DNA of 64,000 bases from an uncultured bacterium (GCA_964434115.1 CAYSSX010000001.1:85571-149570); one strand, 5' to 3'. Positions 737 to 49,500 are shown, numbered from the stretch's first letter. The notes: generated by a model from the letters alone, not told the origin. A program made the numbers and translations.

Positions 737-3700
737 GGTTTTCTTCGCTGAAAAATATCCTGCTTGTGGCGGCCAGCAAGCTGCGGATTCTCGCGGGCTC
801 TCTTTTTCCGCCACCGCCCGCAGAGCCGCCTTCTTCCGGAGGCAAACCCGGCCGGCGGCGCCGCCACAAAATCCCGAACATGCCGGTGCTGCTGCTGATC
901 TGCCTGGCTTCGGGGGTGATCGCGGGGTATGCGACCACCTTGGCTATTCTTAAAACCGCGGATGCGGTGGTTCATGCGGGTGAAAATTCCGTGCACCTGA
1001 TCCGGTTTGTGTTTGGAAAATCCATTCCGCTTGTGGGGAAAATATCAGATGGAAGTTTTGTTTTTTCGGATTTTGAAAAGCCGGGCAGTGAGAAAGCCTG
1101 GATGCCGATCGGAGCCTCGTTTGAAAGCACGGACCGTTTTCCCTCGCAGGGCGCGCGCACCGGGCATGTTTATTTTTCCTCCAAGGCCCGGCAATCCACC
1201 CTGATTCTTGATGATTTGCTGAAGAGCCGCAAAGGCGGCAGTGACTGGACGGGGTATAAGTCGCTATTTTTCACGGTCTTCACACCGGTCAAGGAAGAGG
1301 TCCGGCTTTCCATGCAGATTACCGACCTGTGGGGAAAACAATACCGGGAAATGATGAAATTTTCAGGCGGCCGCGGTGTTTCCATTTCAATCCCTCTGGA
1401 AAAAATCGCGGGGGTTGTGACCCTTTCGAAAATTGACACGCTTGCTTTTTCCATCACGGATGAAAAAGAAGACCGGGAATTTTATTTTGATGACATTCGT
1501 TTGATTCCCAAAGGCAAACGCGAACCTTTCGGTGCCGTTTCGGGCGGTGAAGCTTCGCAGGCTCAAGCCCGGAATGTGCCGCTCGAAAAGCGGAAGGTGA
1601 ATTTCTTTGATTACGATTTCAAGTCCCGCAAGGCGGCCTGGACTTTGGGGCAGGCCGGGCCTCTGAAAGATATTGTGAGGGTTCCTTTTGTGGTCAAAAA
1701 CGAAACTCCGTACCCCTGCCGTTTTTGTTCGGTGGAAGGCGCGCTTCCGTTTCCCGCCGGAGAATTAAAGGACCTTGAAAAAATGAGGCTGCACACACCC
1801 AAGGGCGAGGAAATTGCTTTTCAGCCGCGCGTTTTGTCCCGCTGGCCGGATGGTTCTGTGCGCTGGCTGGCTCTTTCCTTTGAAGAGTCTCTCGGATCCT
1901 GGCAGGGCACGGGTTACTTTTTGGACTACGGTGCCGGGATCCGGCGGATGGCCGCTCCGGAAAGCCGTCTGAAAGTCAGGGAAGACGCCCAGTCGGTGGA
2001 AGTGGATACCGGGGTTTTGCGGTCCGTGCTTGACCGGAATGCCTTTTTTCTTTTTTCCAAAGTTTTTGTGGATGAAAACGGCGACAGTGTTTTTGAAGAC
2101 ACGGAGCAGCGGGTTTCAGACGCCTCGCTCAGTCTTGTTTTCAGAGGCAAGCAATTCCGGACGGATCTGTCCCGGGCCGACTATAAGCTCGAGGTTGAAG
2201 AAAAGGGGCCGCACCGCGTGGTGATCCGCGCCGAAGGCTGGTTCAAATCCGAAGAGGGCAGCCGGTTTTGCAAGGCCATTGTCCGCTACTATTTTTACGA
2301 GGGCAAAAGCGAGGTCAAGATTGCCCACACGCTGATTTATACGGGGTACCCGGAAAACCGCTTTTACGGAGAGTATGAGGGTTTGGACCTTCCGGCCAAC
2401 GAAACCGTGGAATCTTTCGGCATCCAGGTGCCGCTGAAGGGCTGGAAAGAAGACGAGCCTTTGGCTTTGCGTCTTGGCCGTCATGACGCGCCTCCGCTGG
2501 AGCTTGCGGCCAATGAAAAAGTCCGCCTGGTCCAGAAGGGCTGGGAGCAGTCGGTTCTGTATAAAGGCCCGGAAACTTTGGAAAACCAGGGGCTTTTTTC
2601 CGGATGGGCGGAAGTCTCCTCGCCCGTGCGCGGTCTTTCCGTCTCGGTCCGGCGGTTCCGCGAAAATTATCCCAAGGCCTTTGGGTTTGACCCCGCGAAG
2701 CAGGCACTGGAAATTGACCTTTGGCCCGCGGAGCAGGGGCCGCTTGATTTGTCCACAACGGCCAAGGCCTTGGGCCCTGGGGCCGCGGCCCGGGGCAATG
2801 CCTTTGGTCTGGGGAAAACCCACGAAATGCTTTTTTACTTTCACCGCGGCAACGCGCGCGATTCGCTGGAAAAAATGGAAAGCTTTTCGCGCCGCCTTCT
2901 GATCCGCAGCAATCCGTTTTGGGCGGATGCCACGGGCGCGCTGGGCCGTCTTTTTCCTGCCGATAAGCGCTATCAAAAACAGGAACTCATGCTTGAAGAA
3001 TTATTTGATTGGGCGGACCGTCACCCGAAATACTTTCAATGGTACGGCATGATTAATTTCGGAGACACGCTGACCTGGTGGCGCAGCAAGGACGAGGAAA
3101 AAGATTACGGCGAGTTCGGCTGGCATCCGGAGGGCCGCTGGGGCTGGTACAACGCGGAAGGCGTGGGAACGCACACCGGCAGTCTGCTTCAGTTTGTCCG
3201 CAGCGGGAAGTGGAAGTATTTTGAATTCGGGGAAAATCTCGCGCGCCATATTTTTGACATCGATACCATTCACTACAACACAATCGCCGAAGACCCGCGC
3301 CTTAAAAAAGTGCTGAACGATGAGTTCTCCCAGCCCGGATCCATGCACCGCCACAACGGCGACCACTGGGGCGGGCGCAGTGATGAGGCCAGCCATACCA
3401 ATCTGAACGGGATCCTTCTTTATTATTACCTCACGGGGGATGAACGGGCCTGGGACGTGGCCCGTGAGATTGGAGAGTTTTTTCTTAAAGAACGTTTTAC
3501 TTATGCGGGGCACCCTGACATCGCCCCGCACCGCGGCCTCGCCAACGCTCTCTGGGGAGATGTCCTGATGTTTGAGGCCACGGGCGATGAACGGTACAAA
3601 AATGCCGCGGATAAACTCATTGAAATTTTCTTAAAGGGGCAGCAGCCGGACGGAAGTTTTCTGGAAAATTACAATCCCCAGAAAGATTCCTGGTCCGGTG

Positions 3701-4092
3701 AAAAAGAAGAGTTATTCATGTCGTGGTATGACGTGGGCGCCTTTATCAGTTATCATGAACTCACTCAGGATGTGGCGGTCAAGGAAATGCTCCTCAAACT
3801 GGTCAGGTACCTGGCGAAAAGCGAATCTTCAGGCCCCGTGATTCTTCATGGGCTTGCTTACGCTTATCTGATATCCCATGACGCGGAACTGATCAAGCTA
3901 GCGGAGAATTATCTGGCCGTGATTTTGAAAAACCAAATCAACTCCGAAAATCCCGTGCTGGACGGTTTGATTTACGATAAGCCTATTTACCACAGGCCCA
4001 ATATTTACCTCTACACGGTTCCCTATGTCTTCGGGGCTTTGGAGGAAGCTTACATTCAGGAGAGGAAGGCCGCCGCGGCGGCGCAGGTATGA
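733..4092 (+). CDS. Large (1119 aa) membrane-anchored multidomain protein. Pro/Arg-rich N-terminal tail, one TM helix, beta-domain shared with ORF 74-736, long middle region, and a C-terminal about 380-aa W/Y-rich domain with duplicated LTGDER(A/Y) motifs. Putative glycan hydrolase/lyase-like protein of the EPS locus.
   Basis: Long uninterrupted ORF. RBS-like GAAGGGGGGAAG before ATG 733. TM segment PVLLLICLASGVIAGYATTLAIL. Paralogy to upstream ORF. C-terminal motifs WYGMINFGDTLTWW, HRHNGDHWGGRSDEASHTNLNGILLYYYLTGDERAW and MFEATGDERYKNAADKL resemble repeat helices of alpha/alpha-toroid carbohydrate-active enzymes (inference, not verified). Sits immediately 5' of deacetylase/GT2/exosortase genes. 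Confidence 0.7.
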   Translation: MRFSSLKNILLVAASKLRILAGSLFPPPPAEPPSSGGKPGRRRRHKIPNMPVLLLICLASGVIAGYATTLAILKTADAVVHAGENSVHLIRFVFGKSIPLVGKISDGSFVFSDFEKPGSEKAWMPIGASFESTDRFPSQGARTGHVYFSSKARQSTLILDDLLKSRKGGSDWTGYKSLFFTVFTPVKEEVRLSMQITDLWGKQYREMMKFSGGRGVSISIPLEKIAGVVTLSKIDTLAFSITDEKEDREFYFDDIRLIPKGKREPFGAVSGGEASQAQARNVPLEKRKVNFFDYDFKSRKAAWTLGQAGPLKDIVRVPFVVKNETPYPCRFCSVEGALPFPAGELKDLEKMRLHTPKGEEIAFQPRVLSRWPDGSVRWLALSFEESLGSWQGTGYFLDYGAGIRRMAAPESRLKVREDAQSVEVDTGVLRSVLDRNAFFLFSKVFVDENGDSVFEDTEQRVSDASLSLVFRGKQFRTDLSRADYKLEVEEKGPHRVVIRAEGWFKSEEGSRFCKAIVRYYFYEGKSEVKIAHTLIYTGYPENRFYGEYEGLDLPANETVESFGIQVPLKGWKEDEPLALRLGRHDAPPLELAANEKVRLVQKGWEQSVLYKGPETLENQGLFSGWAEVSSPVRGLSVSVRRFRENYPKAFGFDPAKQALEIDLWPAEQGPLDLSTTAKALGPGAAARGNAFGLGKTHEMLFYFHRGNARDSLEKMESFSRRLLIRSNPFWADATGALGRLFPADKRYQKQELMLEELFDWADRHPKYFQWYGMINFGDTLTWWRSKDEEKDYGEFGWHPEGRWGWYNAEGVGTHTGSLLQFVRSGKWKYFEFGENLARHIFDIDTIHYNTIAEDPRLKKVLNDEFSQPGSMHRHNGDHWGGRSDEASHTNLNGILLYYYLTGDERAWDVAREIGEFFLKERFTYAGHPDIAPHRGLANALWGDVLMFEATGDERYKNAADKLIEIFLKGQQPDGSFLENYNPQKDSWSGEKEELFMSWYDVGAFISYHELTQDVAVKEMLLKLVRYLAKSESSGPVILHGLAYAYLISHDAELIKLAENYLAVILKNQINSENPVLDGLIYDKPIYHRPNIYLYTVPYVFGALEEAYIQERKAAAAAQV

Positions 4093-4874
4093 AGAACGCT
4101 GTCCCTGTTCTTAATTATCACGGCATCCAGTCCCGGCCCGGTGAGTACGGCTGGCATACGGGTGAAAAAATTTATGTTTTGCCTTTGGCCTCGTTTCAGG
4201 AACAGCTGCAGGGGATCGCCCGGAAACACGGCGCGCTTGCGAGCGAAGATCTGTCTTCTGCCGCGACAAAAGAGGGCGTGCTTCTGACTTTTGATGACGG
4301 CCATATCAGCCATTACGAACACGCGCGGCCGGCCCTCAAGGCTGCGGGATTTACAGGGATTTTTTTTATTTCCGCGGGGATGATCGGAGAAAAAGATTTT
4401 ATGGACGCGGCCCAGCTGCGCGAAATGGCCAGCGATGGTTTTGAATTGGGATCCCACGGTTATCACCATGTGCCCTTGCCCGGCCTTTCCAGCGCTCAGC
4501 TGAAGGTGGAGATGCAAGACTCCCGGAAAAGACTTGAGGATGTGACCGGCCGCGAAATTCGCAGCTTTTCCATCCCGCGGGGTTTTTATCATCCCCGGAT
4601 CCGGGCCGCGGCCGAAGAAGCCGGCTACCGTTTTTTGTTTACCTCGCATTTTGGCCTTCACACGACCGGTACGGATTTGTTTTATATCCGCAGGATGGCA
4701 GTCACTCAGGACACCACGGCGGGGCAGTTTGAATCCTGGCTTCAAGGCGATTTGGGCGCGATGCGCTGGGTGGAAGAAGCCAAGGAAAAGGCGCGCCAGT
4801 GGATCGGGCCCAAAGGGTATGAGAAAATGGCTCTTTTGAAGGCCCGCCTCCGGGGCGCGGGCAGGGGAATTTAG
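4089..4874 (+). CDS. Polysaccharide deacetylase, NodB-homology domain (PEP-CTERM/exosortase-locus type)
   Basis: Motifs LTFDDGHISHYE and GSHGYHHVPL (NodB Asp-Asp and His-His metal-binding motifs). ATGA overlap with upstream gene. Location in exosortase locus. Confidence 0.85.
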   Translation: MKNAVPVLNYHGIQSRPGEYGWHTGEKIYVLPLASFQEQLQGIARKHGALASEDLSSAATKEGVLLTFDDGHISHYEHARPALKAAGFTGIFFISAGMIGEKDFMDAAQLREMASDGFELGSHGYHHVPLPGLSSAQLKVEMQDSRKRLEDVTGREIRSFSIPRGFYHPRIRAAAEEAGYRFLFTSHFGLHTTGTDLFYIRRMAVTQDTTAGQFESWLQGDLGAMRWVEEAKEKARQWIGPKGYEKMALLKARLRGAGRGI

Positions 4875-4875
4875 A

Positions 4876-6018
4876 ATGATTCTTTTTTGGCTGTCCGTAC
4901 TGCTTGTCCTTTATACCTACGCCGGATACCCGCTTATTCTCATGTGGCTTGCGCGGGTTTCCTCTCGCCCCGTGAAAAAAGGCTCTTATGAACCGCGCGT
5001 GAGCGTGATTGTCTCCGTGTATAACGAAGAGCGGTTTATCGCCGACAAGATTAACAATCTCCTGGCGTTGGATTATCCGGCGGAAAAAATAGAAATCCTG
5101 ATTGGCTCGGACGGCGGCACGGACAGCACGGATGAAATTGTTTCCGGCATCCACGACCCGAGAATCCGGTTTTTTAGATTTGTCGCGAATCTTGGAAAGC
5201 CGCATGTTTTAAACGGGCTGATCGCGGAAGCTCACGGCGCAGTGCTTGTGTTCACCGATGCCCGCCAGCGGTTTGAACCTCAAGCGGTCCGCAAGCTGGT
5301 TGAAAATTTTTCAGACCCTGATGTGGGCTGTGTTTCCGGAGAACTGTATTTTGAGGAAGCCCGCGGCAGCGGCGTGGCGCAAGGGATGGACGCTTATTGG
5401 AAGTATGAAAAATTTCTCCGTAAAAAAGAAGGGGAGATTGCTTCCATGCTGGGGGCCACCGGCGCCATTTACGCGGCCCGGGCCGATCTTGTCCCGACGC
5501 TTCCCCTGAATATCCTTGTGGACGACATGTACATTCCTCTGGCGATTGTTGCGAAAGGGTACCGCGCGGTTTTTGAGAGTGAAGCGCGGGCCTACGACCT
5601 TGCCTCCAGCAAAGGGACACAGGAATTGAAACGAAAGGTCCGCACGCTGTCGGGAAATTTCCAGATTTTTGCGGCCTTTCCAGACTTGTTAAAACCGTGG
5701 AAAAGCCCGGTGGCCTGGCAGCTCTTGTCGCATAAATTTTTGCGTCTTATGGTGCCGTACTTTTTGATGACCGCATTCCTGAGTAATCTTTTTTTATGCG
5801 CCCATCCTTTTTACTGTTTCTTGCTGCTGGTGCAGGCTGCTTTCTACAGTCTTGCGGCATTTGAGGCCTTGCGCGTGCACTTTTTTCCGCAGATGAAACC
5901 TTTCCGGCCCGCGGCGCTTCCCTACATGTTCTGCCTGCTCAATTTTTCTGCCGCGGCCGGGCTTCGTCAGTACCTCAAAGGGCAGCCCAAAGCCGCGTGG
6001 GACAAGGCTTACCCATGA
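4876..6018 (+). CDS. Family 2 glycosyltransferase, membrane-embedded processive type (N-terminal TM helix plus C-terminal TM bundle)
   Basis: VSVIVSVYNEERFI...LIGSDGGTDSTDEI (GT2 DxD region) and DDMYIPL. Hydrophobic N-terminus and C-terminal multi-TM region, as in PgaC/cellulose-synthase-like synthases. Confidence 0.85.
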   Translation: MILFWLSVLLVLYTYAGYPLILMWLARVSSRPVKKGSYEPRVSVIVSVYNEERFIADKINNLLALDYPAEKIEILIGSDGGTDSTDEIVSGIHDPRIRFFRFVANLGKPHVLNGLIAEAHGAVLVFTDARQRFEPQAVRKLVENFSDPDVGCVSGELYFEEARGSGVAQGMDAYWKYEKFLRKKEGEIASMLGATGAIYAARADLVPTLPLNILVDDMYIPLAIVAKGYRAVFESEARAYDLASSKGTQELKRKVRTLSGNFQIFAAFPDLLKPWKSPVAWQLLSHKFLRLMVPYFLMTAFLSNLFLCAHPFYCFLLLVQAAFYSLAAFEALRVHFFPQMKPFRPAALPYMFCLLNFSAAAGLRQYLKGQPKAAWDKAYP

Positions 6019-6123: not shown

Positions 6124-6999
6124 TTGTTTAATTCTCAAACTATGACCTCAACATCCGAACAAACCCATTTCAGCTGGAAAAAGCTTCTGCTTCCGGGCCT
6201 TGCCTGCGCGGGGCTTTTGGCCTGGGTCTATGCCCCTACCTTTGAGTGGATGGTGGACCGCTGGTCGGTCCGCGATTCATATTACGGACACGGTTTTTTG
6301 ATCCCGCTGGTTTCTCTGTTCTGGATTTGGCAGAAGCGCGCGGAAATCGCTAAGGCCGTACCCGAGTCCAGCGCCTGGGGCTTTCCTGTTTTGGCCGCAG
6401 CCGCGGTGCTTCAGATTTTTGCCGCTGTTTTCAGGGTTTATTTTATTTCTGCTTTTTCTTTTGTGTTCATGCTTTTCGCGGGCGTTCTTTTGCTGGGCGG
6501 TCTGCGCCTTCTCAAACTTGTGTGGTTTCCTGTTTTCTTTCTGACCTTAATGGTCCCGCTTCCGCTTTTAATGATTTCTGAAATCACCCTGAAAATGAAA
6601 TTCCTTGTGACTGAAATGGCGGTGCATTGCCTGAACGCAGTCGGCCTGCATTCCGAGCGGCAGGGCAGTTACATTGTTCTTCCGAACACGTTCCTGCTGG
6701 TCGGAGACCCTTGCAGCGGCCTGCGCTCCTTTCTTTCTTTTCTTTGTCTGGGGTTTGTTTTCGCTTACGGCGGAAGGACCGCGTGGTGGGGAAAACTGGT
6801 GCTTGTTTTTGCCGGGCTGCCGCTTGCCATCCTTTCAAACTTGATGCGGGTTTTCTTTTTGGGGCTTGTCGCGGAAGTCTACGGCCAGGAAGCCGCGGGC
6901 GGCAAAATCCACGACGTTTCCGGAATTGTTGTCTTTATTATCTCGTTCTGCATTTTTATGGTGATCCGTCAAAAGCTGGAGGGGTCGCATGCAGGCTAA
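6124..6999 (+). CDS. xrt: Exosortase (PEP-CTERM protein-sorting transpeptidase)
   Basis: Polytopic membrane protein. Catalytic-Cys motif GDPCSGLRSF and conserved Arg in SNLMRVFFLG, typical of the exosortase/archaeosortase family. Adjacent EpsI gene and PEP-CTERM substrates. Confidence 0.85.
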   Translation: MFNSQTMTSTSEQTHFSWKKLLLPGLACAGLLAWVYAPTFEWMVDRWSVRDSYYGHGFLIPLVSLFWIWQKRAEIAKAVPESSAWGFPVLAAAAVLQIFAAVFRVYFISAFSFVFMLFAGVLLLGGLRLLKLVWFPVFFLTLMVPLPLLMISEITLKMKFLVTEMAVHCLNAVGLHSERQGSYIVLPNTFLLVGDPCSGLRSFLSFLCLGFVFAYGGRTAWWGKLVLVFAGLPLAILSNLMRVFFLGLVAEVYGQEAAGGKIHDVSGIVVFIISFCIFMVIRQKLEGSHAG

Positions 7000-7603
7000 A
7001 ACAGCCAAAGGCCTCATCCCGTTTGTGCTTGTGCTGGGCGCCTTGAGTTTCTTCCGCCTCGCGCTTCCTTCCGCAATGACTATTGCCGGGGAAGTCAGCC
7101 CGTTTTTTAAAACCTTTCCCCTCGAAATCGGCGCATGGAAAGGCGAAGAAATTGTTCCGGATGAACGCGATCTTCAAATTCTGGAAACGCGCAATGTCTT
7201 GTCGCGCAATTACCGCAATGCGGCCGGCGACTCTTTGCATCTTTTTCTGGTCAGTTCCAAAAAAGACCGCCGCGTCGCGCATCCGCCGGAAGTCTGTTAT
7301 GTTTCCTCGAATTTCAACGTGGTCAATGCCCGTGAGACCACGATTCAGGGGCCGGATGCCAAGATCATTCCGGTAAAGGAGTTTACGGCTGTTCCGGAGC
7401 GTCAGCCGGACAATGCCCAGGAAGTTTTGTACCTTTACAAGATCGGAAACCGGTTTACGACTAATTACTATGCCCAGCAGCTTCAGTTCGCTTTGGATAA
7501 TTTGTCGAAGAATGATTCCGAGGTTTTGATGATTCGTCTGGCAGGAAGAAACAAGGCTGTTCTTGAGGAATTCCTCAAAGAATTAATCCCGGTTTTGAAT
7601 TAA
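6989..7603 (+). CDS. epsI: EpsI-family exosortase-associated protein
   Basis: N-terminal TM anchor LIPFVLVLGALSFF. Motif AHPPEVCYVSS matches the conserved H-P-E-x-C signature of EpsI proteins. 11-nt overlap with exosortase stop. Confidence 0.75.
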   Translation: MQAKTAKGLIPFVLVLGALSFFRLALPSAMTIAGEVSPFFKTFPLEIGAWKGEEIVPDERDLQILETRNVLSRNYRNAAGDSLHLFLVSSKKDRRVAHPPEVCYVSSNFNVVNARETTIQGPDAKIIPVKEFTAVPERQPDNAQEVLYLYKIGNRFTTNYYAQQLQFALDNLSKNDSEVLMIRLAGRNKAVLEEFLKELIPVLN

Positions 7604-7902
7604 CCTTCCCGGGCAGCGTCTCAACTCTAACGCTGCAGACTGCAAAAGACAAAGGACACTTCGTTCACGCGAAAGGCTTTGCCTTGAGGCGAACGGGATG
7701 TCCTTAAAAGATGTAAGTTTATGAAAATGCAGAGGTTGTCAAAATCGCCGGTTATTTAAACAAATCTAGACAAATGTTGTTTTTTTTAGACATTCTGAAA
7801 TTGAAACTAAGATAAGTGACTTTGATGACAAAGCTTTTTAATTGTAAGTCATTCAAAATAAACAAGTTACACAATGTTTTAAACAGGTTAGTTTGAAATT
7901 AG

Positions 7903-7920
7903 TTGGCATGGAAAGTGCAT
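7903..7920 (+). promoter_or_regulatory. Sigma-54 (RpoN) -24/-12 promoter candidate upstream of sugar transferase / PEP-CTERM genes
   Basis: TTGGCATGGAAAGTGCAT = TGGCAT(G)-N4-(G)TGCA with exact GG-N10-GC spacing versus consensus TGGCACG-N4-TTGCA. Lies in a 330-nt AT-rich intergenic region, about 55 nt before ATG 7977. Confidence 0.5.
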
Positions 7921-7976
7921 AGAGTCTGAATGCTGAAGTGCACTTATTCAAATATCCCCGTCATAAGGTGAGCAAA

Positions 7977-8732
7977 ATGAAAACGTTATGGAATGAAGAA
8001 GTTAAACAAGGGTTTAACGCTCTGAGGGCTGATATCCAGCGAGATTATATGCTTCGCCGATATCAGATGCTCTCGAAGGGTGAAACCCCTGTTGAAGAAA
8101 AGCTGATGCACCATTTAACGCATGCCTATACGGCGGTGGTGACATCCTGGCGGCGTTTTTTGAAGCGCGTTTTGGATCTTTCGGTGTCTTTGATGGGGTT
8201 GACCTTGGGCGCGCCTCTGTTCCTGTTGATCGCCCTTGTCATTAAGCTCGACTCCCGCGGACCTATTTTTTACAAACAGCTTCGAGTGGGGCTTCGCGGC
8301 CGTACCTTTTACATCTATAAATTCCGCAGCATGCGTCAGGATGCGGAAGTCAAAAGCGGCCCGGTGTGGGCTAAAGAGAACGATCCGCGCATTACTCGTA
8401 TCGGGAATTTTCTCCGCAAAACGCATTTGGACGAGCTTCCTCAATTCATCAATGTCTTAAAAGGGGAGATGAGCCTTGTCGGTCCCCGCCCTGAGCGCCC
8501 GCACTTCGTGAAAGAATTGCGCAAAGTGATTCCGCATTATGACAAGCGCCATTATGCCAAACCTGGGGTTACCGGGCTTGCGCAGATCCGCCAGCGCTAC
8601 GATGAAACAACTGAAGATGTGAAGAAGAAAGTACGTTACGACGTGCTTTATATCAAAAAGATGTGTCCGATTCTCGATATTAAGGTGATCGCCATGACGG
8701 CGTTTACCATGATTCTGAGAACGGGCAGATAA
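7977..8732 (+). CDS. Exopolysaccharide polyprenyl-phosphate sugar transferase (bacterial sugar transferase family, WbaP/EpsB C-terminal-domain type)
   Basis: Motifs GPRPERPHF, PGVTGLAQI and YDVLYIKKMCPILDIKV, plus a TM helix LGAPLFLLIALVI. Start chosen at ATG 7977 (GGTGA RBS 8 nt upstream); the ORF could start at 7938. Confidence 0.85.
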   Translation: MKTLWNEEVKQGFNALRADIQRDYMLRRYQMLSKGETPVEEKLMHHLTHAYTAVVTSWRRFLKRVLDLSVSLMGLTLGAPLFLLIALVIKLDSRGPIFYKQLRVGLRGRTFYIYKFRSMRQDAEVKSGPVWAKENDPRITRIGNFLRKTHLDELPQFINVLKGEMSLVGPRPERPHFVKELRKVIPHYDKRHYAKPGVTGLAQIRQRYDETTEDVKKKVRYDVLYIKKMCPILDIKVIAMTAFTMILRTGR

Positions 8733-8796
8733 GAGAATGATTCCAGCTAGCGGGAATTACTTCTCTAATTTAAAAAAGAAAGGAGCTAGAAACAGC

Positions 8797-9504
8797 ATGA
8801 AAAAAACTCTGAGCTTGTTCGCACTCATCGCCGGATTGGTTATTCTCTCCAGCGCACGTGCGTACGCAGCTGTTCCGGTGATTGACGGAAGCGTCAGTCC
8901 CGCCACTGAATGGGATAATACTGGTTATAACTATTATCTCAACATCAGTGATCCGAACGAAGTTGATGTTCCTGATTCATACGACATCGCGTCAGCGACG
9001 TTGCTTCAGGAAATTGAAGGCTTCGGATTTGGAGATTCTAACGCTGCCAACGACGGGATTTACCTCCTGATCACGACCTATGCGACTCCTTCCTTCGTGG
9101 ATTTCACGTTGGGCGGTCCTAAGGTTACCGTGTATTTGGATGGTGATTTCGACGGCGATGGTATCGTTGATTTCTCACTTCAGCACACAGCTCTTGCTAA
9201 TGGAACCGGCCAGACGGTTACTGTAACGTTCAACGTTTTTGGACCTACAGGCGACCTTGTTGCAAACGGTGGTTCTTTCGCAGTGAACGGTGTGCTTGAG
9301 TATTTCATTCCTCACACGGGTTTCAATACCCCCAGCGTTCCTTTCCCTGGTGCGTTTGTTGGATACATCACCTATGATAATGGTGGTCTTCCTCCAGATG
9401 ATATCGCGACTGGCACCTTGGTTCCTGAGCCGAGCAGCATGCTTCTCTTCGGAGGCGCGTTGTTGGGTCTTTTGGGTGTGAATTTCAAGCGTTTCTCCAA
9501 GTAG
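8797..9504 (+). CDS. PEP-CTERM sorting-domain protein (exosortase substrate)
   Basis: AAAGGAG RBS before ATG 8797. Signal peptide MKKTLSLFALIAGLVILSSARAYA. C-terminus VPEPSSMLLFGGALLGLLGVNFKRFSK (PEP motif, TM helix, basic tail). Internal DGDFDGDGIVD Ca-binding-like motif. Confidence 0.85.
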   Translation: MKKTLSLFALIAGLVILSSARAYAAVPVIDGSVSPATEWDNTGYNYYLNISDPNEVDVPDSYDIASATLLQEIEGFGFGDSNAANDGIYLLITTYATPSFVDFTLGGPKVTVYLDGDFDGDGIVDFSLQHTALANGTGQTVTVTFNVFGPTGDLVANGGSFAVNGVLEYFIPHTGFNTPSVPFPGAFVGYITYDNGGLPPDDIATGTLVPEPSSMLLFGGALLGLLGVNFKRFSK

Positions 9505-9654: not shown

Positions 9655-10485
9655 GTGGCCCGGCACATGGCACGTCACCCCGAAAATAATAAGCCACAGC
9701 AAAGCCTGCACCGCGAAACACTTATCGCGATTGCAAAGCAGCCCATTATTCCCGCGCTCTTCATACTTCTGGCAATTTTCCAAGCAGCAGGCTTGACAGC
9801 CCTTTTTCTTTCGCATTCCGAGCCGTTTTCGAGCATTTTGGGACCGATTATCCGCCGTTTTTGGGGGGAGCGTTTTCTGCATTATCCGGAAAACTTTCTT
9901 TTGCTGCCCAAGCTTTTTGGCCACTCTGAAATGGTGATCCTGACCCTTTTCGGTCTTCTGGTCACAGGCATTACGATTCAGCTTGTAGGCGCCGCCCGGA
10001 CCGGGGACAGCCGTGTCACGGCCGTGACCGCTTTTTCCGGCACCTTGAAAAAGTATCTGGGGCTGGCCGCTCTGTGGATTGCTTTGTTTTTCCTGCTTCG
10101 GACAGTTTCGAGAGCGGTACTGCCGTTTCTTCCCCCGCAGATTCCGGTCCATTACGCGGGTCTTCTGGCGGTTTTTTTATCCACGCAGGTTCTTACTGCG
10201 CTGCTCTTCCCGGCAATTCTTCTTTCTGGAAAAGGGTATTGGAAAGCCCTTGCGGAAGGTTTCTTGCTCTCCGTGAAGAATTTCCCCGTGCTGTTTGCGG
10301 CCTTATTCATTCCGGTGGCTTTAAGCGTGGCGGTCTCGTTCCTTAGGTCTTTGTCGCCGTCGATTTCGCATGATAACCCGGATTTTGTGCTCGTGATTTT
10401 GTACGGCAGTATTTTGGTTTCAACCGTTGTGGATCTCTACATCACCTCCGCGACGGCTATATTCTATTTGAAAGTGAGGAATTAA
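9655..10485 (+). CDS. Hypothetical polytopic integral membrane protein (about 6 TM)
   Basis: Long ORF with repeated hydrophobic helices. No recognisable catalytic motif. Embedded between two PEP-CTERM genes. Confidence 0.55.
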   Translation: MARHMARHPENNKPQQSLHRETLIAIAKQPIIPALFILLAIFQAAGLTALFLSHSEPFSSILGPIIRRFWGERFLHYPENFLLLPKLFGHSEMVILTLFGLLVTGITIQLVGAARTGDSRVTAVTAFSGTLKKYLGLAALWIALFFLLRTVSRAVLPFLPPQIPVHYAGLLAVFLSTQVLTALLFPAILLSGKGYWKALAEGFLLSVKNFPVLFAALFIPVALSVAVSFLRSLSPSISHDNPDFVLVILYGSILVSTVVDLYITSATAIFYLKVRN

Positions 10486-10492
10486 AATTCCC

Positions 10493-11212
10493 ATGAAACA
10501 TTTTAAACGTTATTTGGCGGGCTTCCTTTGCGCGGTTCTTCCGAGCTGGAGCCTTTACGCGGCGGTGCCCGATATGCCGCTGGTTTTCACGCCCTCCGCT
10601 CTTCCGATTGAAGAGCCGGCTGAAAAATTCATTGGCTGGTATGACCTGGTCTATCAGGATCAGGTTGCGCCTCCCACAGTTCCGCAGGCGATTGTGGACG
10701 CCTTATTTCCCGACCAGGAAATTGCGCTTCCTCAGATCTCTGGCGGTGTTTCCGTGCCTCTCGAAAAGCTTTCTGATGCGGACCTGGAAGAAGAACTTCA
10801 GGACGAACTCCTTTTAGATGAGGATGCTGAAGGCGAGCATTCTTCGAAGAAGCGGCTGGTTGTCGGCCTTCTTATTCTCAGTGCAGCGCTCGGGGCGCTT
10901 CTCTTACTTCTTTCGGGTTCTGGCGGCGGCTCCGGTTCTGGAAGCGGCGGCTCGTCAGGAAATGGTGGTGACTCCAACGGTTCCACGCCTCCTCCTGTGG
11001 GCGGCGGCGGTACCGGCGGCGGGAATGGAACAGGCCCGGGTACGGGACCTGGTACCGGCGGTGGCGGCGGCCCTGGTGTTGGCGGCGGTCCCGGCGGTGG
11101 TGGTATTACTCCTTTCTCATTTCCGAACAATGTTCCCAATAACCCGGAACCTTCGACCCTGTTTTTGATTGGCCTTGGATTGTTGTTGCCTTTTTTGCGT
11201 AGAAAAGGATAA
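10493..11212 (+). CDS. PEP-CTERM sorting-domain protein, acidic N-terminal region plus long Gly/Pro-rich low-complexity region
   Basis: Signal peptide MKHFKRYLAGFLCAVLPSWSLYAAVP. C-terminus NPEPSTLFLIGLGLLLPFLRRKG. Internal SGSGGGSGSG...GTGPGTGPGTGGGGGPG tract. Confidence 0.8.
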   Translation: MKHFKRYLAGFLCAVLPSWSLYAAVPDMPLVFTPSALPIEEPAEKFIGWYDLVYQDQVAPPTVPQAIVDALFPDQEIALPQISGGVSVPLEKLSDADLEEELQDELLLDEDAEGEHSSKKRLVVGLLILSAALGALLLLLSGSGGGSGSGSGGSSGNGGDSNGSTPPPVGGGGTGGGNGTGPGTGPGTGGGGGPGVGGGPGGGGITPFSFPNNVPNNPEPSTLFLIGLGLLLPFLRRKG

Positions 11213-11221
11213 TCCGAGTTC

Positions 11222-12634
11222 ATGAGAAAAACGTTTTTCCTTTTTTTGCTCGCGGCCTTTGCTTTTTCAGGCTGCGGTAAAAACTATCTTGCCGAGAAAG
11301 AGTTCTTTAAAGCAGAACAGCTGCTGAAGGGACTCAATCTTTCCCAGAGCCTAGATCCGCTCGACCAGGCTGTTGATGCCTTTCGCTCGGTCGCGGACCG
11401 CTATCCAGGCACACCCAAGGCGCTTGAAAGTCTCCGCCTCATTTCCAATATGCGTCTTAAACAAAAAAAGTATGAGGAGGCGCGAGAGGCCATGACGGAA
11501 GTCATTCAGAGTTTCGCGGCTTCCCAGGATGCTATTGCAGATGCCCGTTACCGTATCGGGGAAATCTACGAGATTGAAGAGAAGTGGGATGCTGCCGAAA
11601 AGTATTTTTGGGAACTTTCCGAGTACAGCCCCCTTCACGCAAAAGGCCTTTACGCTCCGATCAAAATTCTCCTCAATTACCGCAGGACTAAAGATGACAA
11701 AGGCTTTGAACGCGCGTATGTCAAAGCGTTGGACCATTACGAAAGTCTCCTTAAACAGGTAGGCCCCATTGAAGCCTCCGCGCCTGTCCGGAATTATTTG
11801 GGAATGGTTCAGATGATTCACGAAGATGCGGACAAGGCTCTTGCGACCTGGCTTTCCATCCCGCTGGATTTTCCCAAAAGCCCGCATGCCTCCATGGCGA
11901 TTCTGGCCGCCGCCGAATTGAACTGGAAAAATAAGGAATACGAAAAAGCCGAAGCTTTATATCAGCGCTTTTTCACGGAATACCCGGGGCACCCCTTGAC
12001 TGGAAGAACCGCGATGACTCTTGGCCTTGCCTATCACAGCAAAGGGGACTTTACCAAATCCCGTGAATCTTATCAGCGCGCACTGGACAGCGGCGGTTAT
12101 GCAGAAAAATCCCCTGAGAGATCGGAATTGAAACTTCTCATGGCGCGCAGTTATCAGGATGAACTGCTCTGGGATGAGGCCGACGCCCTTTATCAGGAGA
12201 TCGAATTGGCTTACCCCAATTCGTCAGCGGCGCTTCAGGTCCCGTTAATGCGCGCAGACCATTTTAATGAAGTGGGTGAGACGGCTCAGGCGCTGGATAT
12301 TCTTGATAAAGCCATCCGGCATTATGAAGTTTTGGCGGCGAATCAAAAGGATCCGAAAATTGTGAGTTACGCCCAGCGTTTTCGCTCGCAGGCTTTAGCC
12401 CGTAAAGGGGCCTGGAAAGAAATTGTTGATGATATTGACAAACGCATGGCTGAAGAGACAACGCCGGTCCGCAAAGGCCGCTGGCTTTTCTTAAAAGCGC
12501 TTATGACACAGAATCGTTTAAAGGATTCGCCCAAGGCCATTGAGTTATACGAAAGTTTTCTGAATCTTTACCCCGGTCATCCCTTAGAAGCCCGGGCAAA
12601 GACCCAGCTCGAACTCCTCCGCAAGCCCGCTTAA
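11222..12634 (+). CDS. TPR-repeat lipoprotein
   Basis: Lipoprotein signal with lipobox FSGC (MRKTFFLFLLAAFAFSGCG). Multiple TPR-like helical repeats (YPGTP/YPGHP tetratricopeptide motifs). Cf. PEP-CTERM-system TPR lipoproteins. Confidence 0.75.
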   Translation: MRKTFFLFLLAAFAFSGCGKNYLAEKEFFKAEQLLKGLNLSQSLDPLDQAVDAFRSVADRYPGTPKALESLRLISNMRLKQKKYEEAREAMTEVIQSFAASQDAIADARYRIGEIYEIEEKWDAAEKYFWELSEYSPLHAKGLYAPIKILLNYRRTKDDKGFERAYVKALDHYESLLKQVGPIEASAPVRNYLGMVQMIHEDADKALATWLSIPLDFPKSPHASMAILAAAELNWKNKEYEKAEALYQRFFTEYPGHPLTGRTAMTLGLAYHSKGDFTKSRESYQRALDSGGYAEKSPERSELKLLMARSYQDELLWDEADALYQEIELAYPNSSAALQVPLMRADHFNEVGETAQALDILDKAIRHYEVLAANQKDPKIVSYAQRFRSQALARKGAWKEIVDDIDKRMAEETTPVRKGRWLFLKALMTQNRLKDSPKAIELYESFLNLYPGHPLEARAKTQLELLRKPA

Positions 12635-12805
12635 CCCCCCCCGTATTAGCTTCTATAAACAATCCCCTAGTTTACTTTTTTAGACTTTTCTCGGTATACA
12701 AAACTAATCAAAAACAATCTTTTTAAAGCAATTTAAAACAACCTCTATGGGGTCATAACATATTGAAATAAAAGCACTTACGATTATATATTTCGCCCGC
12801 AAGCC

Positions 12806-12833
12806 TTGAATGGGGAAGTTCTTGTGATATAAT
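12806..12833 (+). promoter_or_regulatory. Sigma-70-like promoter candidate for the GAF histidine kinase gene
   Basis: TTGAAT -N16- TGATATAAT (extended -10 TGn-TATAAT) about 85 nt upstream of ATG 12918. Confidence 0.35.
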
Positions 12834-12917
12834 CCACACATCGTTTTCCAAAAGATTCATCATTGTGATTAAAAAAAACAACTTTCTGAATTCAAACCGG
12901 AAAAACCAGGACAGCCA

Positions 12918-14192
12918 ATGACCTCAGCGGTTCAAAGTTCCGAAAAAAGTTCCAGGCGTTTAGAATTTCTTCAGGAAGAACTGCACTCCACATCGCCTCA
13001 TTATTCTAATCCGGATCATTTCCTCGAATTCGTTCTCGATTCAACGCTTTCTGTCGTAAAGGCGCATGCAGGTTCTTTGTTTCTTTGGGATGAATCCAAA
13101 AAGGCTTTGGTCTTGAAGTCTTCCCGCGGTCCTTACGGGAACCGCCTTAACCATGTTCATGTCCGTCTGCGTGAAGGTATTTCGGGATGGGTGGGCGGCA
13201 ACGGCCGTTCTGTTCTTGTGAAAGACATTCAGGCCGATCAGCGCTTCAGCCAGTTTAAGCGCGCCGGGCAGTACAAAACGGACTCCTTTATTTCTCTCCC
13301 TTTAATTGCATCCAATAAACTTGTGGGTGTTATCAATGTGACCGAGCGGGAAAGCCTGAGCGCGTTTACTGAAGAGGATTTTGAACGCGCGCGCGTTTTT
13401 GCCCAGTACATTGCGATCGCTTATGAAAACATGCGTCTTGCAGCGAAGCACAAGATTGAAAATCAACAGCTTGGAGACCGTGTGATGCGCTTGGAGCAAA
13501 CCTTGCGCGATCAAGAAGCTCTGGTGTCGGTCGGCCGGCTTGCTTCCAATCTTGCCCATGAGCTTAATAACCCGCTGGACTCCATACGCCGCTATGTGAA
13601 TTTGGCCCTTGATCAAGTGATGGAAGATTCGGTTGCGAGACAGTACATTCTGAATGCCAAAGAGGGGATCCGCCGCGCGGTTCAAGTCATACGCGGCCTC
13701 CTTCAATATACAAGAGAAACCGGGCGCATTGAACGCCGGGAATCGGAAATTCATCGCGTGCTCAGAGACAGTCTTGAAAGCGCGGTGAAGGATCAAAGTT
13801 TTGGAAGCATTAAAATCGAAACGAATTTTAAAGCCCCTCCCGCGATTGTCTCGGATTGCGGACTGATGTTTGTTTTTAGAAATCTTTTCAAAAATGCCCA
13901 TTACGCCATGAAAGGCGCCGGAACCTTGACGGTGGAAACCCATTATGAAAATGAACGCGTGGTTATTTGCGTTTCGGATACGGGCTCGGGAATTCCAGAA
14001 GCTGTAAAACGCCGTCTTTTTGAACCCTTCTTTTCCACAAAAAAGGATGAGGGTACCGGGATTGGTTTAACGATATGCCGCGAAATTGTTCAGAAATGCG
14101 GAGGAGACATCTCCTTCGAAAGCCAGATGGGTGTGGGCACTCAATTCTTGATTCAAATTCCCTGTAAGAAAAAGGAAATTCCAGCCGCGTGA
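12918..14192 (+). CDS. Cytoplasmic GAF-domain sensor histidine kinase
   Basis: N-terminal GAF-like region. HisKA box LASNLAHELNNPLDSIRRY. HATPase G-boxes VSDTGSGIPE and GTGIGLTICREIV. No TM segments. Confidence 0.85.
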   Translation: MTSAVQSSEKSSRRLEFLQEELHSTSPHYSNPDHFLEFVLDSTLSVVKAHAGSLFLWDESKKALVLKSSRGPYGNRLNHVHVRLREGISGWVGGNGRSVLVKDIQADQRFSQFKRAGQYKTDSFISLPLIASNKLVGVINVTERESLSAFTEEDFERARVFAQYIAIAYENMRLAAKHKIENQQLGDRVMRLEQTLRDQEALVSVGRLASNLAHELNNPLDSIRRYVNLALDQVMEDSVARQYILNAKEGIRRAVQVIRGLLQYTRETGRIERRESEIHRVLRDSLESAVKDQSFGSIKIETNFKAPPAIVSDCGLMFVFRNLFKNAHYAMKGAGTLTVETHYENERVVICVSDTGSGIPEAVKRRLFEPFFSTKKDEGTGIGLTICREIVQKCGGDISFESQMGVGTQFLIQIPCKKKEIPAA

Positions 14193-15553
14193 AAAACTCT
14201 GTCCTTATTATTGAAGACAACGACCTTGTAAGAAACTCCCTGACGGATTTCCTGACTCTGGAAGGGTGCCAGGTGTCGCAGGCCTCTGACGGTCCCGAGG
14301 GGCTTGACCTTATTGTCCAAAAAACGTTTGATCTGGCACTGATTGATTTAAGGCTTCCTTCCGCAAATGGTATTTCCATTCTCGAAAAAGCAAAAGCGAT
14401 CCGTCCGGATATGGACGTTATCATGATGACGAGTTTTGGAACCGTGGAGACCGCTGTTGAAGCCATGAAACTCGGGGCAGTCCATTACCTGACCAAACCG
14501 ATCAACGATGATGAACTGAAAATTATTCTGAAAAGGCTTTCGGACACGCGCCATCTCCGGGAAGAGAACGAGCACCTTCGCCAGGAACTGGATGACAAGC
14601 GTTCCCATTTTCATAATTTGATCGGGCAGGACAGCAAGATGCAGAAAATTTACTCGATCATCAAAGCCATCAGTGATACCGATACAACGGTGCTTCTGCG
14701 GGGCGAGAGCGGAACGGGTAAGGGCATGATCGCCCAAGCGATCCATTACAGTGACCCCTCGCGCAATAAAGGCCCCTATGTGGAAGTGAGCTGCGGAGCC
14801 ATTCCCCGTGAGCTGCTGGAAAGTGAACTGTTCGGTCATGTGAAAGGCTCTTTCACGAGCGCAATCCGCGACCGTATGGGTCGTTTTGAGCTGGCGAATG
14901 GGGGAACAATCCTCTTGGATGAAATCGATTCCCTTCCGCCTTATTTGCAGGTGAAACTGCTCCGCGTTCTTCAGCAGAAAGAATTTGAGCGCGTGGGAGA
15001 CACGAAGACCCTTCATGTTGATGTCCGGATTATTGCTTCGACCAACCGTGACCTGGCTGCCGAGATTGCAAGGGGACAGTTCCGGGAAGATCTTTATTAC
15101 CGCCTCAATGTCATTACCATCGATGTCCCGCCTCTGAGAGAGCGCAAAGAGGATATCCCCGCGCTTGTGAAGCATTTTCTCAGTGCCTTTAATCTTAAAA
15201 CCCGCAGGATGCTTAAGACCGTGAGTTCCCAAGCCATGAAACGCATTCTTGACTATCATTGGCCGGGCAATGTCCGGGAGCTGGAAAATTTTCTGGAACG
15301 GGCGGTTGTTTTGTCGCAGGGGGAAGTCCTGGATGTCGATGTTTTTCCGGAGTATATCGGGAAGAAGAGTGAAGCGTATCAGGTCCCGGAAGTCGAAAAT
15401 ACCTCGTTGAAGGAAGTCCTCAAAGAACCTGAAAAGCAGATTATCAAGAAAGTTCTGGATCAAGTCGGATGGAACCGCAAAAAAGCCGCCGGCTTGTTGA
15501 ACATCAACCGCACCACGCTTTACAACAAAATGAAGGAATACCAGCTGCTTTAG
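14189..15553 (+). CDS. Sigma-54-dependent response regulator (NtrC-family bacterial enhancer-binding protein: REC, AAA+, Fis-HTH)
   Basis: GTG start overlapping kinase stop (GTGA). Receiver LIIEDNDLVRNSL...LIDLRLP. Walker A GESGTGKG. ESELFGHVKGSFTSA (GAFTGA-loop variant). C-terminal HTH AAGLLNINRTTLYNKMKEY. Confidence 0.9.
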   Translation: MKNSVLIIEDNDLVRNSLTDFLTLEGCQVSQASDGPEGLDLIVQKTFDLALIDLRLPSANGISILEKAKAIRPDMDVIMMTSFGTVETAVEAMKLGAVHYLTKPINDDELKIILKRLSDTRHLREENEHLRQELDDKRSHFHNLIGQDSKMQKIYSIIKAISDTDTTVLLRGESGTGKGMIAQAIHYSDPSRNKGPYVEVSCGAIPRELLESELFGHVKGSFTSAIRDRMGRFELANGGTILLDEIDSLPPYLQVKLLRVLQQKEFERVGDTKTLHVDVRIIASTNRDLAAEIARGQFREDLYYRLNVITIDVPPLRERKEDIPALVKHFLSAFNLKTRRMLKTVSSQAMKRILDYHWPGNVRELENFLERAVVLSQGEVLDVDVFPEYIGKKSEAYQVPEVENTSLKEVLKEPEKQIIKKVLDQVGWNRKKAAGLLNINRTTLYNKMKEYQLL

Positions 15554-15704
15554 CCTGGCTGGAGGCCCTTTTCCGCGCCGTAAAAAACCCGTTGGCTTTC
15601 CCGCGAAAATCGCTATAATTAGTTCTTTCTAACTGGCCCCTTAGCCACGTGTTGCGACATTTGCCGCGAGCTTTCATAAAAATATCATCAAAAAGGAATT
15701 GCCC

Positions 15705-16904
15705 ATGTCTAAAGTAAAAACAATTCGGGATCTCTCTTTGAACGACAAACGCGTTCTTATCCGGGTGGATTACAACGTTCCCTTGAACGAAAAGGGTCAG
15801 ATTACGGATGATATCCGCATCGCGAAGTCGGTGGATACGATCCGCTACTGCCTTGAGCGTAATGCCCGCGTGATCCTGATGTCCCATTTGGGCCGCCCCA
15901 AGGGTGCGCCTGAGGCAAAGTATTCCTTAAAACCCGCGGCGGATCATCTTGCGAAACTTTTGGGGAAACCCGTGAAGCTTTTAGGGGATTGCGTAGGCCC
16001 TGAAGTTGAAAAAGCGGTTCAGGCCATGAAGTCCGGCGATGTGGTGATGCTGGAAAACCTCCGCTTTCATGCGGAGGAAACCAAAAATGACGCTGCGTTT
16101 GCCAAAAAACTTGCCTCGCTGGCGGATGTTTATGTGAATGACGCGTTTGGCGCGGCTCACCGTGCGCATGCCTCAACCGCTGGTGTGACGGAATATCTTC
16201 CTTCCGGAGCGGGATTTCTGATGTCCCGTGAACTTGAATATCTTGGAAAAGCTATTACGACCCCGGACCGTCCTTTTGTGACGATTCTCGGCGGCGCCAA
16301 AGTTTCTGATAAAATTAAGCTGATCAGCAATTTGATTGATAAAGCGGATACGATTCTTATCGGCGGCGCGATGGCCTATACCTTTTACAAGGTCATGGGG
16401 ATTGGTATTGGCAATTCCAAGTTTGAGCCGGACGGCGTTCCGGCTGCGGAACTTGCGCTCCGCAAAGCCAAGGAAAAGAATTTCCCGCTCATTTTTCCGG
16501 ATGACCGCGTGATAGCCCCTTCAATTGATGAAGCCTCCAAGGCGAAAGTCATTGATACCGAAATTCCCGACGGCTGGTCAGGTTTTGACATTGGCCCCAA
16601 AACCGTGGAAAGATACAAAGCGATTCTGGCCAATGCGAAAACCATTGTCTGGAATGGCCCCGTGGGACTGTTTGAAGTGAAGCCGTTTGATGAAGGAACC
16701 AAAGCCTTGGCGAAGTTTATCGCCGGACTCAAAGCGACCAAGATCATCGGGGGCGGAGATACGGCCGCAGCTGTCCGCGCGTTCGGCCTGGACACGCAGA
16801 TGTCGCATGTTTCCACAGGCGGCGGAGCATCGCTTGAATTTCTCGAAGGAACCCAACTTCCTGGTGTGACCGCGTTAGCCGAAAAAGCCGGAGCAGCCAA
16901 GTAA
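15705..16904 (+). CDS. pgk: Phosphoglycerate kinase
   Basis: MSKVKTIRDLSLNDKRVLIRVDYNVPL and full-length PGK motifs. AAAAAGGAA RBS. Confidence 0.95.
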   Translation: MSKVKTIRDLSLNDKRVLIRVDYNVPLNEKGQITDDIRIAKSVDTIRYCLERNARVILMSHLGRPKGAPEAKYSLKPAADHLAKLLGKPVKLLGDCVGPEVEKAVQAMKSGDVVMLENLRFHAEETKNDAAFAKKLASLADVYVNDAFGAAHRAHASTAGVTEYLPSGAGFLMSRELEYLGKAITTPDRPFVTILGGAKVSDKIKLISNLIDKADTILIGGAMAYTFYKVMGIGIGNSKFEPDGVPAAELALRKAKEKNFPLIFPDDRVIAPSIDEASKAKVIDTEIPDGWSGFDIGPKTVERYKAILANAKTIVWNGPVGLFEVKPFDEGTKALAKFIAGLKATKIIGGGDTAAAVRAFGLDTQMSHVSTGGGASLEFLEGTQLPGVTALAEKAGAAK

Positions 16905-47900: not shown

Positions 47901-47903
47901 ATC

Positions 47904-49295: not shown

Positions 49296-49500
49296 AAACT
49301 GCCAAAGCGGCACACTTTCTGCTGTGCCAAAACGCATCAGCTCTTCTTTAAGGCCTTCCACGAGCACCTCCCTAAATATTCTCTAAGTTATTTTATAGCT
49401 TTAAGTTGCAGGATACTTAGAGAAGCGCCCCTCGGTGGCACGGTAATTGATAAAGAGACGGTGCAGTAAAATATCAGGTCTTATCAAAAAGGAGATTTAT

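Follow-up and report, generated by a model that had tools for sequence, protein, structure and literature searches.

We analysed a stretch of 64,000 nucleotides (nt) of DNA (GCA_964434115.1, CAYSSX010000001.1:85571-149570; hereafter the window) that is from an Omnitrophota bacterium, a member of a phylum of ultra-small and often host-associated organisms, and that carries at 12918-15553 a soluble histidine kinase followed directly by a sigma-54 enhancer-binding response regulator. We put at roughly 70% the probability that the exosortase/PEP-CTERM exopolysaccharide locus beside this pair has in it a two-component switch of its own. We favour this reading because the pair, a putative sigma-54 promoter within the locus and a dyad upstream of that promoter are conserved together across the phylum, and because the catalytic residues are intact. 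Exosortase/PEP-CTERM systems are widespread in environmental bacteria, and to our knowledge PrsK/PrsR of Proteobacteria is the only case in which their control has been characterised; the elements described here would be the first defined regulatory module, with its cis elements, for exosortase loci outside Proteobacteria. These elements are as follows, in window coordinates and with protein lengths in amino acids (aa):

12918-14192, plus strand: soluble sensor histidine kinase, GAF-HisKA-HATPase by Pfam domains, ATG start, 424 aa

14189-15553, plus strand: sigma-54 enhancer-binding response regulator, REC-AAA+-Fis by Pfam and NCBIfam, GTG start, 454 aa

7904-7919, plus strand: putative sigma-54 (-24/-12) promoter TGGCATGGAAAGTGCA of the glycosyltransferase/PEP-CTERM operon, with GG-N10-GC intact

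7775-7792, plus strand: candidate upstream activating sequence TGTTGTTTTTTTTAGACA, a TGT-N12-ACA dyad that starts ~129-130 nt upstream of the promoter match

12806-12833, plus strand: predicted sigma-70-type promoter with an extended -10 (TTGAAT-16-TGTGATATAAT), scoring 10/12 in a consensus scan, with the TG motif

The association of the pair with the locus was traced through a scan of 185,579 species genomes, one per species, which gave 74 loci, followed by tblastn with the window proteins. Together with six contig look-ups, the scan provided 56 loci with a full-length GAF kinase, and in 52 of these (46 from the scan, 6 from the look-ups) the regulator lies directly downstream. Nearly all kinase homologues belong to Candidatus Omnitrophota, and the full-length family extends to ~30% identity. 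Where the sequence upstream of the pair reaches 2.5 kb or more (37 pairs), one or more homologues from the exosortase locus precede it in 33; where at least 6.5 kb is available, exosortase or EpsI is present in 17 of 21 and the glycosyltransferase in 18 of 21. The six contigs that were looked up, whose kinase homologues are 48-91% identical, all hold the block of glycosyltransferase, small proteins, tetratricopeptide repeat (TPR) protein, kinase and regulator (6/6), and both flanks of the block vary. A check on co-occurrence had been proposed together with an earlier, sequence-only reading of this DNA; once run, it found the pair staying beside the exosortase, EpsI, priming glycosyltransferase and TPR genes across the phylum, down to ~30% kinase identity. 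The order of these genes differs between clades, being exosortase-EpsI-glycosyltransferase-...-TPR-kinase in the clade of the window and glycosyltransferase-...-TPR-exosortase-EpsI-kinase in distant clades, so the linkage has outlived rearrangement, which is a classic sign of functional coupling.

Some loci depart from this arrangement. In L006, unrelated genes occupy the upstream place of the exosortase genes and pyruvate dehydrogenase genes follow downstream. L037 (12760-19063) counts as an exception without an upstream exosortase; there the order is kinase-regulator-rpoN, then a sigma-54 site at 14499 that has a dyad ~240 nt upstream of it, and after the site come export genes of the Wza-like, Wzz-like, ExeA-like ATPase and CpsD-like tyrosine kinase types, which form the typical XrtA-associated export set. 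On the 3' side of the regulator, a gene for a PocR-GAF protein (~330 aa) follows directly in 37 related loci, and rpoN, which is often physically linked to the exosortase regulon in relatives, lies just beyond it, within a few kb of the pair, in 16. In L005, for example, the pair is followed by the PocR-GAF protein (12697-13686, minus strand), a PEP-CTERM protein and rpoN (14844-16367, minus strand). Neither the PocR-GAF gene nor rpoN was found within the window; L010 retains the PocR-GAF gene between regulator and pgk, and the rest of the window's clade is without it. Taken together, these neighbourhoods suggest that kinase, regulator, PocR-GAF and rpoN formed an ancestral four-gene module.

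The putative promoter at 7904-7919 is the sole exact match to TGGCAY-N6-TGCW within the window. The window alone cannot establish it, because one site per 64 kb is not beyond chance, and looser sigma-54 patterns in the window alone are below chance (19 against 31 expected, and 11 against 11.5); what gives the site weight is that relatives conserve it. Across 1.10 Mb of related loci, the strict pattern has 35 matches where 8.4 would be expected, a fourfold excess, and 34 of the 35 share the strand of the locus. Of these matches, 23 lie at most 150 nt upstream of a homologue of the glycosyltransferase and 2 lie upstream of the conserved membrane protein gene, while four others precede stand-alone PEP-CTERM genes (L022 at 360 and 1458, L051 at 2816, L061 at 4637). 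In the window, the mechanical open reading frame call starts the glycosyltransferase at GTG 7938, which is probably wrong because the leader after the sigma-54 promoter would then be ~8 nt. The true start is probably ATG 7977, where a Shine-Dalgarno sequence AAGGTGA and a protein beginning MKTLWN agree with the annotated start in L002, and the leader would be ~47 nt. The annotated glycosyltransferase start in L001 (4984) falls inside the promoter there (4980-4995) and is likely a mis-call.

Upstream of these promoters, the dyad TGT-N12-ACA is present in 21 of the 23 regions, with 26 sites in all where shuffled sequence gave 2.0 on average and 6 at most (13-fold); the two remaining regions have TGT-N12-ACG, and spacings other than N12 give at most 9 sites each, against the 26. 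For most dyads the distance to the -24 element downstream is 123-170 nt, and their consensus is TGTT[GT][AT]TTTTTTT[AG][AG]ACA. The pattern TGTNNNTTTNNNNNNACA has its sole window match at 7775-7792. The invariance of the TGT and ACA half-sites is matched on the protein side, where the recognition helix INRTTLY[NK]KM of the regulator is invariant in 22 aligned members (the window regulator and 21 orthologues), and we take the two together as support for DNA recognition.

The kinase consists by Pfam of GAF_2 (31-168), HisKA (206-267) and HATPase_c (316-416). It had been described from its sequence as having a GAF-like N-terminus and no transmembrane segments, and hydropathy, the GAF_2 match and an AlphaFold2 model all bear this out. 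The maximum Kyte-Doolittle mean over 19 residues is 1.42, with none above 1.6, against 2.38 for the exosortase as a control. In the model (mean predicted local distance difference test score, pLDDT, of 80), the first ~30 residues are disordered, the GAF domain occupies 32-151 and the catalytic domain 274-418; a single continuous helix (152-233) is predicted to connect the GAF domain to the dimerization and histidine phosphotransfer (DHp) domain and to bear His214, and the modelled chain is free of membrane segments. His214 is the phospho-acceptor within the H box HELNNPLD, and 21 orthologues show no variation in this residue or in the N and G boxes. The whole chain matches in fold the engineered LOV-FixL chimeras YF1 and SB2F1 (PDB 4gcz and 8a3u), in which a cytoplasmic sensor is likewise joined to DHp by a continuous coiled-coil helix; their sensor is LOV/PAS, whereas that of the window kinase is GAF, and the likeness is architectural only. 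Such a layout suggests that the signal passes from sensor to His214 by way of the helix. Among solved structures, the cytoplasmic domain of ZraS (9jfj) matches the kinase core best. In the fold search the kinase core dominates the matches, and a GAF ligand cannot be assigned from it, nor from the sequence matches of the GAF domain in the PDB, which are to the GAF domains of PtsP, PDE5/10 and HD-GYP proteins (E 1e-6 to 1e-12).

The regulator had been read as a full REC-AAA+-Fis bacterial enhancer-binding protein, and Pfam finds every one of these domains: Response_reg at 5-113 (PF00072), Sigma54_activat at 144-311 (PF00158), AAA_lid_14 (PF25601) and HTH_8 at 412-451 (PF02954). The proposed overlap of the kinase stop with the regulator start as GTGA can be read directly at the junction (14187-14193, gcGTGAa), where the stop TGA at 14190-14192 overlaps the start GTG at 14189-14191; this GTG start is supported because a public collection holds an identical protein of 454 aa (P0121). 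D53, K103, the Walker A motif GESGTGK and the Walker B residues DE are invariant across orthologues. The sigma-54 contact loop reads GSFTSA, in the context ...FGHVKGSFTSAIRD..., and the protein has what marks an enhancer-binding protein, namely Walker A and B and a GAFTGA-type loop with G1, F3, T4 and A6 kept. That GSFTSA takes the place of GAFTGA was correctly noted from the sequence, but it is not a notable anomaly, as positions 2 and 5 vary freely. Within its clade GSFTSA is restricted to the window genome, the L001 regulator (94% identical) and the rest of the clade having GAFTSA, and the loops of other clades include GSFTGA, GSFTSA and GAFTGA, position 5 being now and then T, N, H or D. 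Among orthologues, then, position 2 is A or S and position 5 is G, S, T, N, H or D, with G1, F3, T4 and A6 fixed. In Desulfovibrio vulgaris, activators with GSFTGA, GAFTDA and GAFTHA were judged activation-competent and were assigned target operons (PMC4641369). The idea of GSFTSA as a functionally odd loop was therefore rejected, both substitutions being ordinary within the family and variants at positions 2 and 5 being known from the Desulfovibrio vulgaris activators.

We propose that the kinase and regulator are driven independently of the sigma-54 operon by the sigma-70 promoter at 12806-12833. Among five aligned regions upstream of the pair (mean identity 61%), TTGA and TGTG.TATA.T are invariant, and pattern scans found no sigma-54 site in the 283-nt gap (12635-12917) before the kinase. 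Within the same gap, ~120 nt upstream of the -35 element (12806), a sequence at 12669-12686 (AGTTTACTTTTTTAGACT) agrees with 13 of the 18 positions of the dyad, the outer T and A being absent. It is also conserved in L001, and may be either a weak site for autoregulation or merely the T-rich end of the TPR transcript.

The course of events that we envisage begins with transcription of the pair from this conserved and presumably active promoter. The cytoplasmic kinase would then sense an intracellular cue through its GAF domain and relay it along the continuous helix to DHp, whereupon His214 would be autophosphorylated and the phosphate passed to Asp53, chemistry that we assign to these conserved residues from knowledge of the family. 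The phosphorylated regulator would assemble on the dyad at 7775-7792, and its AAA+ ATPase would open the promoter at 7904-7919; both elements are conserved. Switched on in this way would be the operon for the priming glycosyltransferase, two PEP-CTERM proteins, the membrane protein at 9655-10485 and the TPR lipoprotein.

The genes of this operon and those upstream of it make up the surface-polysaccharide locus:

733-4092, plus strand: PcRGLX-like protein (rhamnogalacturonan-lyase-like/GH127-like), 1119 aa

4089-4874, plus strand: polysaccharide deacetylase

4876-6018, plus strand: family 2 glycosyltransferase (GT2)

6124-6999, plus strand: exosortase (TIGR02602, 153.4 against a cut-off of 105.55; XrtA, 173.1 against 208)

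6989-7603, plus strand: EpsI, exosortase-associated (TIGR02914, 71.7 against a cut-off of 42.8)

7604-7937: AT-rich gap, 334 nt

7938-8732, plus strand: polyprenyl glycosylphosphotransferase, the priming sugar transferase and first gene of the putative sigma-54 operon (TIGR03025, 314.8 against 295.55)

8737-9504, plus strand: protein with a PEP-CTERM sorting signal, C-terminus ...VPEPSSMLLFGGALLGLLGVNFKRFSK (PF07589, 24.7 against 20.7)

9655-10485, plus strand: multi-pass membrane protein, 276 aa, with 61 hydrophobic windows and homologues in most related loci

10493-11212, plus strand: second PEP-CTERM protein, C-terminus ...NPEPSTLFLIGLGLLLPFLRRKG (PF07589, 22.0 against 20.7)

11222-12634, plus strand: TPR lipoprotein, 470 aa, with matches to TPR families and YbgF/BamD-like matches and a lipobox-like N-terminus ...AFSGC

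The exosortase scores above the cut-off of the generic EpsH family only, and above that of none of the named subtypes. The PcRGLX-like, deacetylase and GT2 genes (733-6018) are syntenic with the exosortase in L001-L005, L013 and L019, with a metallophosphoesterase inserted in two clades. The membrane protein at 9655-10485 has no match in Pfam or NCBIfam even at E<=5, yet in most related exosortase loci it accompanies the glycosyltransferase and TPR genes; it is an uncharacterised core component of this type of locus. The placement of the pair directly 3' of the TPR lipoprotein gene, as first read, holds: the pair begins 283 nt 3' of that gene (11222-12634), whose product has a lipoprotein-like N-terminus, MRKTFFLFLLAAFAFSGC. 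The TPR gene lies directly 5' of the kinase in loci L001-L016, which is the position of PrsT in proteobacterial systems. On the other side of the pair are pgk, tpiA, secG, recG, rsmD, coaD, plsX and fabH, with pgk on the same strand and 145 nt away, so that the pair marks the boundary where the surface-polysaccharide locus gives way to housekeeping genes.

The window holds a second pair of the same general kind:

46584-47900, plus strand: second histidine kinase, with no recognised sensor domain

47904-49295, plus strand: second REC-AAA+-Fis sigma-54 activator, with loop GSFTGA, 43.6% identical to the regulator at 14189-15553

This pair lies between trpD/trpC/trpF and dnaK. Beyond it, at 49436-49451 on the plus strand, is a -24/-12-like site (TGGCACGGTAATTGAT) that has TTGA instead of TTGC at -12 and ends 51 nt upstream of the dnaK ATG (49502); it may be a sigma-54-dependent chaperone promoter.

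Several points weigh against a dedicated switch. The support for it is all comparative, and the shuffles behind the 13-fold excess of dyads control base composition and not the homopolymer-rich character of the AT-rich intergenic DNA that holds this T-rich dyad. Nor is the dyad universal for the regulon: among the stand-alone PEP-CTERM promoters it is found within 260 nt at L061 only, those of L022 and L051 being without it. The nearest solved GAF domains (PtsP, PDE, HD-GYP) have differing ligands or none known, which bears on the cue that the kinase would sense. In addition, the second pair at 46584-49295, or an activator elsewhere in the genome, could serve the 7904 promoter. The sequence-only reading had called the pair at 12918-15553 the obvious candidate activator of this promoter, which it placed at 7903; the conserved linkage, the promoter (7904-7919) and the dyad support that candidacy, but the existence of the second pair means that it is not the sole one. 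If another activator such as that at 47904-49295 did serve the promoter, the adjacent pair would have other targets and its adjacency would be a loose association, which is conceivable given that enhancer-binding proteins can act at a distance and that regulators do not always lie beside their targets. We nevertheless consider this improbable, since the second pair sits between trpDCF and dnaK and its activator has a different recognition helix (ISRRTLYRKI, unlike INRTTLY[NK]KM), whereas promoter and dyad are conserved jointly with the adjacent pair across the phylum. A role in controlling the downstream pgk-tpiA-secG genes, which are on the same strand and 145 nt away, is strongly disfavoured: in no more than 5 of 31 loci is the pair followed by pgk/tpiA, the housekeeping genes pgk, tpiA, secG and recG being found downstream in the closest relatives only, and pattern scans of 15553-15699 gave sigma-70-like sites and no sigma-54 site. 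On the synteny, pgk-tpiA was rejected as the regulated target.

The remaining alternatives concern the family to which the pair belongs. In proteobacterial systems, PrsK is TIGR02916 (cut-off 300), PrsR is TIGR02915 (cut-off 502.6) and PrsT is TIGR02917 (cut-off 312.2), and the pair might be a diverged true PrsK/PrsR orthologue (TIGR02916/TIGR02915) whose PrsK has lost the N-terminal membrane domain. PrsK is indeed the only NCBIfam kinase model to span both the GAF region and the kinase core of the window kinase (residues 31-415 against 319-679 of the 679 profile positions), PrsR is the third-best model for the regulator, and the tandem of TPR protein, kinase and regulator parallels PrsT-PrsK-PrsR (PMC1569441). 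The scores, however, fall below all three cut-offs, with 96.3 bits for the kinase, 394.7 for the regulator and 32.9 for the TPR protein, which at 470 aa is shorter than the ~900 aa of PrsT. Across 23 related regulators the PrsR cut-off is apparently unreached (best E 2.3e-131, an estimated ~440 bits), and in every case AtoC is the model that scores highest; the kinase core scores better on AtoS, VirA-like and ZraS models than on PrsK, and the exosortase stays below the XrtA cut-off. PrsK is defined as transmembrane with a novel N-terminal sensing domain, and the window kinase has no hydrophobic segment and only ~30 residues in front of its GAF domain. Public annotations give the orthologues a generic name ('sigma-54 dependent transcriptional regulator'). 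All in all, a true orthologue seems unlikely to us. A tblastn search of PLSDB plasmids with the kinase, intended to find a bona fide PrsK and confirm its domain layout, gave as top matches generic sensor histidine kinase/GAF proteins (Rhizobium, cyanobacteria), with PrsK not among them. Very unlikely is a generic system of NtrC/AtoC/ZraR type, serving nitrogen, short-chain fatty acids or metal stress, with a coincidental exosortase neighbourhood. The top NCBIfam models are AtoC/AtoS, NtrC and ZraR/ZraS, and some orthologues carry the labels 'HydG' or 'AtoC' at JGI, but the regulator remains below these curated cut-offs too (AtoC 469 against 714, NtrC 401.2 against 558.6, ZraR/HydG 387.8 against 760), ato, gln and zra genes are absent nearby, and 33 of 37 informative loci have kept the exosortase linkage through rearrangements. 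An assignment to NtrC or HydG had been named beforehand as the outcome that would undo the proposed role, with a comparison to TIGR02915 as the check; no such family assignment resulted.

More speculatively, and at slightly less than even odds, we suggest that Omnitrophota as a phylum possess a module dedicated to their exosortase/PEP-CTERM locus, composed of the GAF kinase, the activator, PocR-GAF and often rpoN with a dyad of its own, which was assembled independently of the proteobacterial system or has diverged deeply from it, and which was reduced in the window clade by loss of PocR-GAF. Control over the surface matrix would then rest with a metabolite or second messenger inside the cell rather than with a signal at the envelope, and the locus points to a GAF-sensed internal cue as the possible trigger of matrix and surface-protein production. 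For annotation, the entries named 'sigma-54 dependent transcriptional regulator' that lie next to exosortase loci in Omnitrophota form a coherent family that could be given its own model. A literature search found no papers on exosortase regulation in Omnitrophota.

Among characterised systems, AtoS/AtoC and ZraS/ZraR of the E. coli NtrB/NtrC class provide the best-scoring models for both proteins and share the REC-AAA+-Fis regulator. AtoS and ZraS are, however, membrane sensors without GAF, the scores are far below the cut-offs, and in place of ato or zra target genes the pair has synteny with exosortase genes. The closer parallel is with the transmembrane kinase PrsK, the NtrC-type regulator PrsR and the TPR lipoprotein PrsT, which Haft et al. 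(2006) defined or predicted in Proteobacteria and which co-occur there with a two-part element, an enhancer motif and a sigma-54 site, before PEP-CTERM genes (PMC1569441). Genetics in Zoogloea support the view that PrsK/PrsR and RpoN control a PEP-CTERM gene and floc formation (PMC9012009), and in Aquincola the transcription of pepA is RpoN1-dependent (PMC9850573). The likeness extends to a tandem of histidine kinase, NtrC-type regulator and TPR lipoprotein beside exosortase/exopolysaccharide genes, to -24/-12 target promoters with an upstream enhancer motif and PEP-CTERM genes under putative sigma-54 control, and to stand-alone PEP-CTERM genes with such promoters in other Omnitrophota, as Haft et al. 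described in Proteobacteria. The regulator has the PrsR architecture (REC, sigma-54 AAA+ and Fis helix-turn-helix), and the PrsR context of a tandem with a kinase near exosortase/exopolysaccharide genes is found in the window and in 33 of 37 related loci.

The differences are nonetheless substantial. The pair is found in Omnitrophota; the genomes from which PrsK/PrsR and its upstream motif were defined are proteobacterial. The predicted Omnitrophota target is a priming glycosyltransferase operon that contains PEP-CTERM genes, while those of PrsK/PrsR are single-gene PEP-CTERM operons. Compared by description, the Omnitrophota dyad has 18 nt (TGT-N12-ACA) and lies ~130-170 nt upstream, whereas the motif of Haft et al. 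has 17 nt, ends in TTTACA and lies ~63 nt upstream. In most Omnitrophota loci PocR-GAF, often with rpoN, is added directly after the regulator. The window kinase, finally, is fully cytoplasmic, without the membrane-embedded N-terminal domain of PrsK, and would read an internal signal where PrsK/PrsR reads one at the membrane. The sequence-only reading had spoken of a PrsK/PrsR analogue with a different sensor; the PrsK/PrsR-like role stands, but the difference lies in the missing membrane-embedded N-terminal half and not in a gained GAF domain. We read the pair as a functional analogue of PrsK/PrsR/PrsT rather than a member of that family, and the locus would represent a second, architecturally distinct solution to the task of PrsK/PrsR, with a testable promoter and an 18-nt dyad conserved in an uncultivated phylum.

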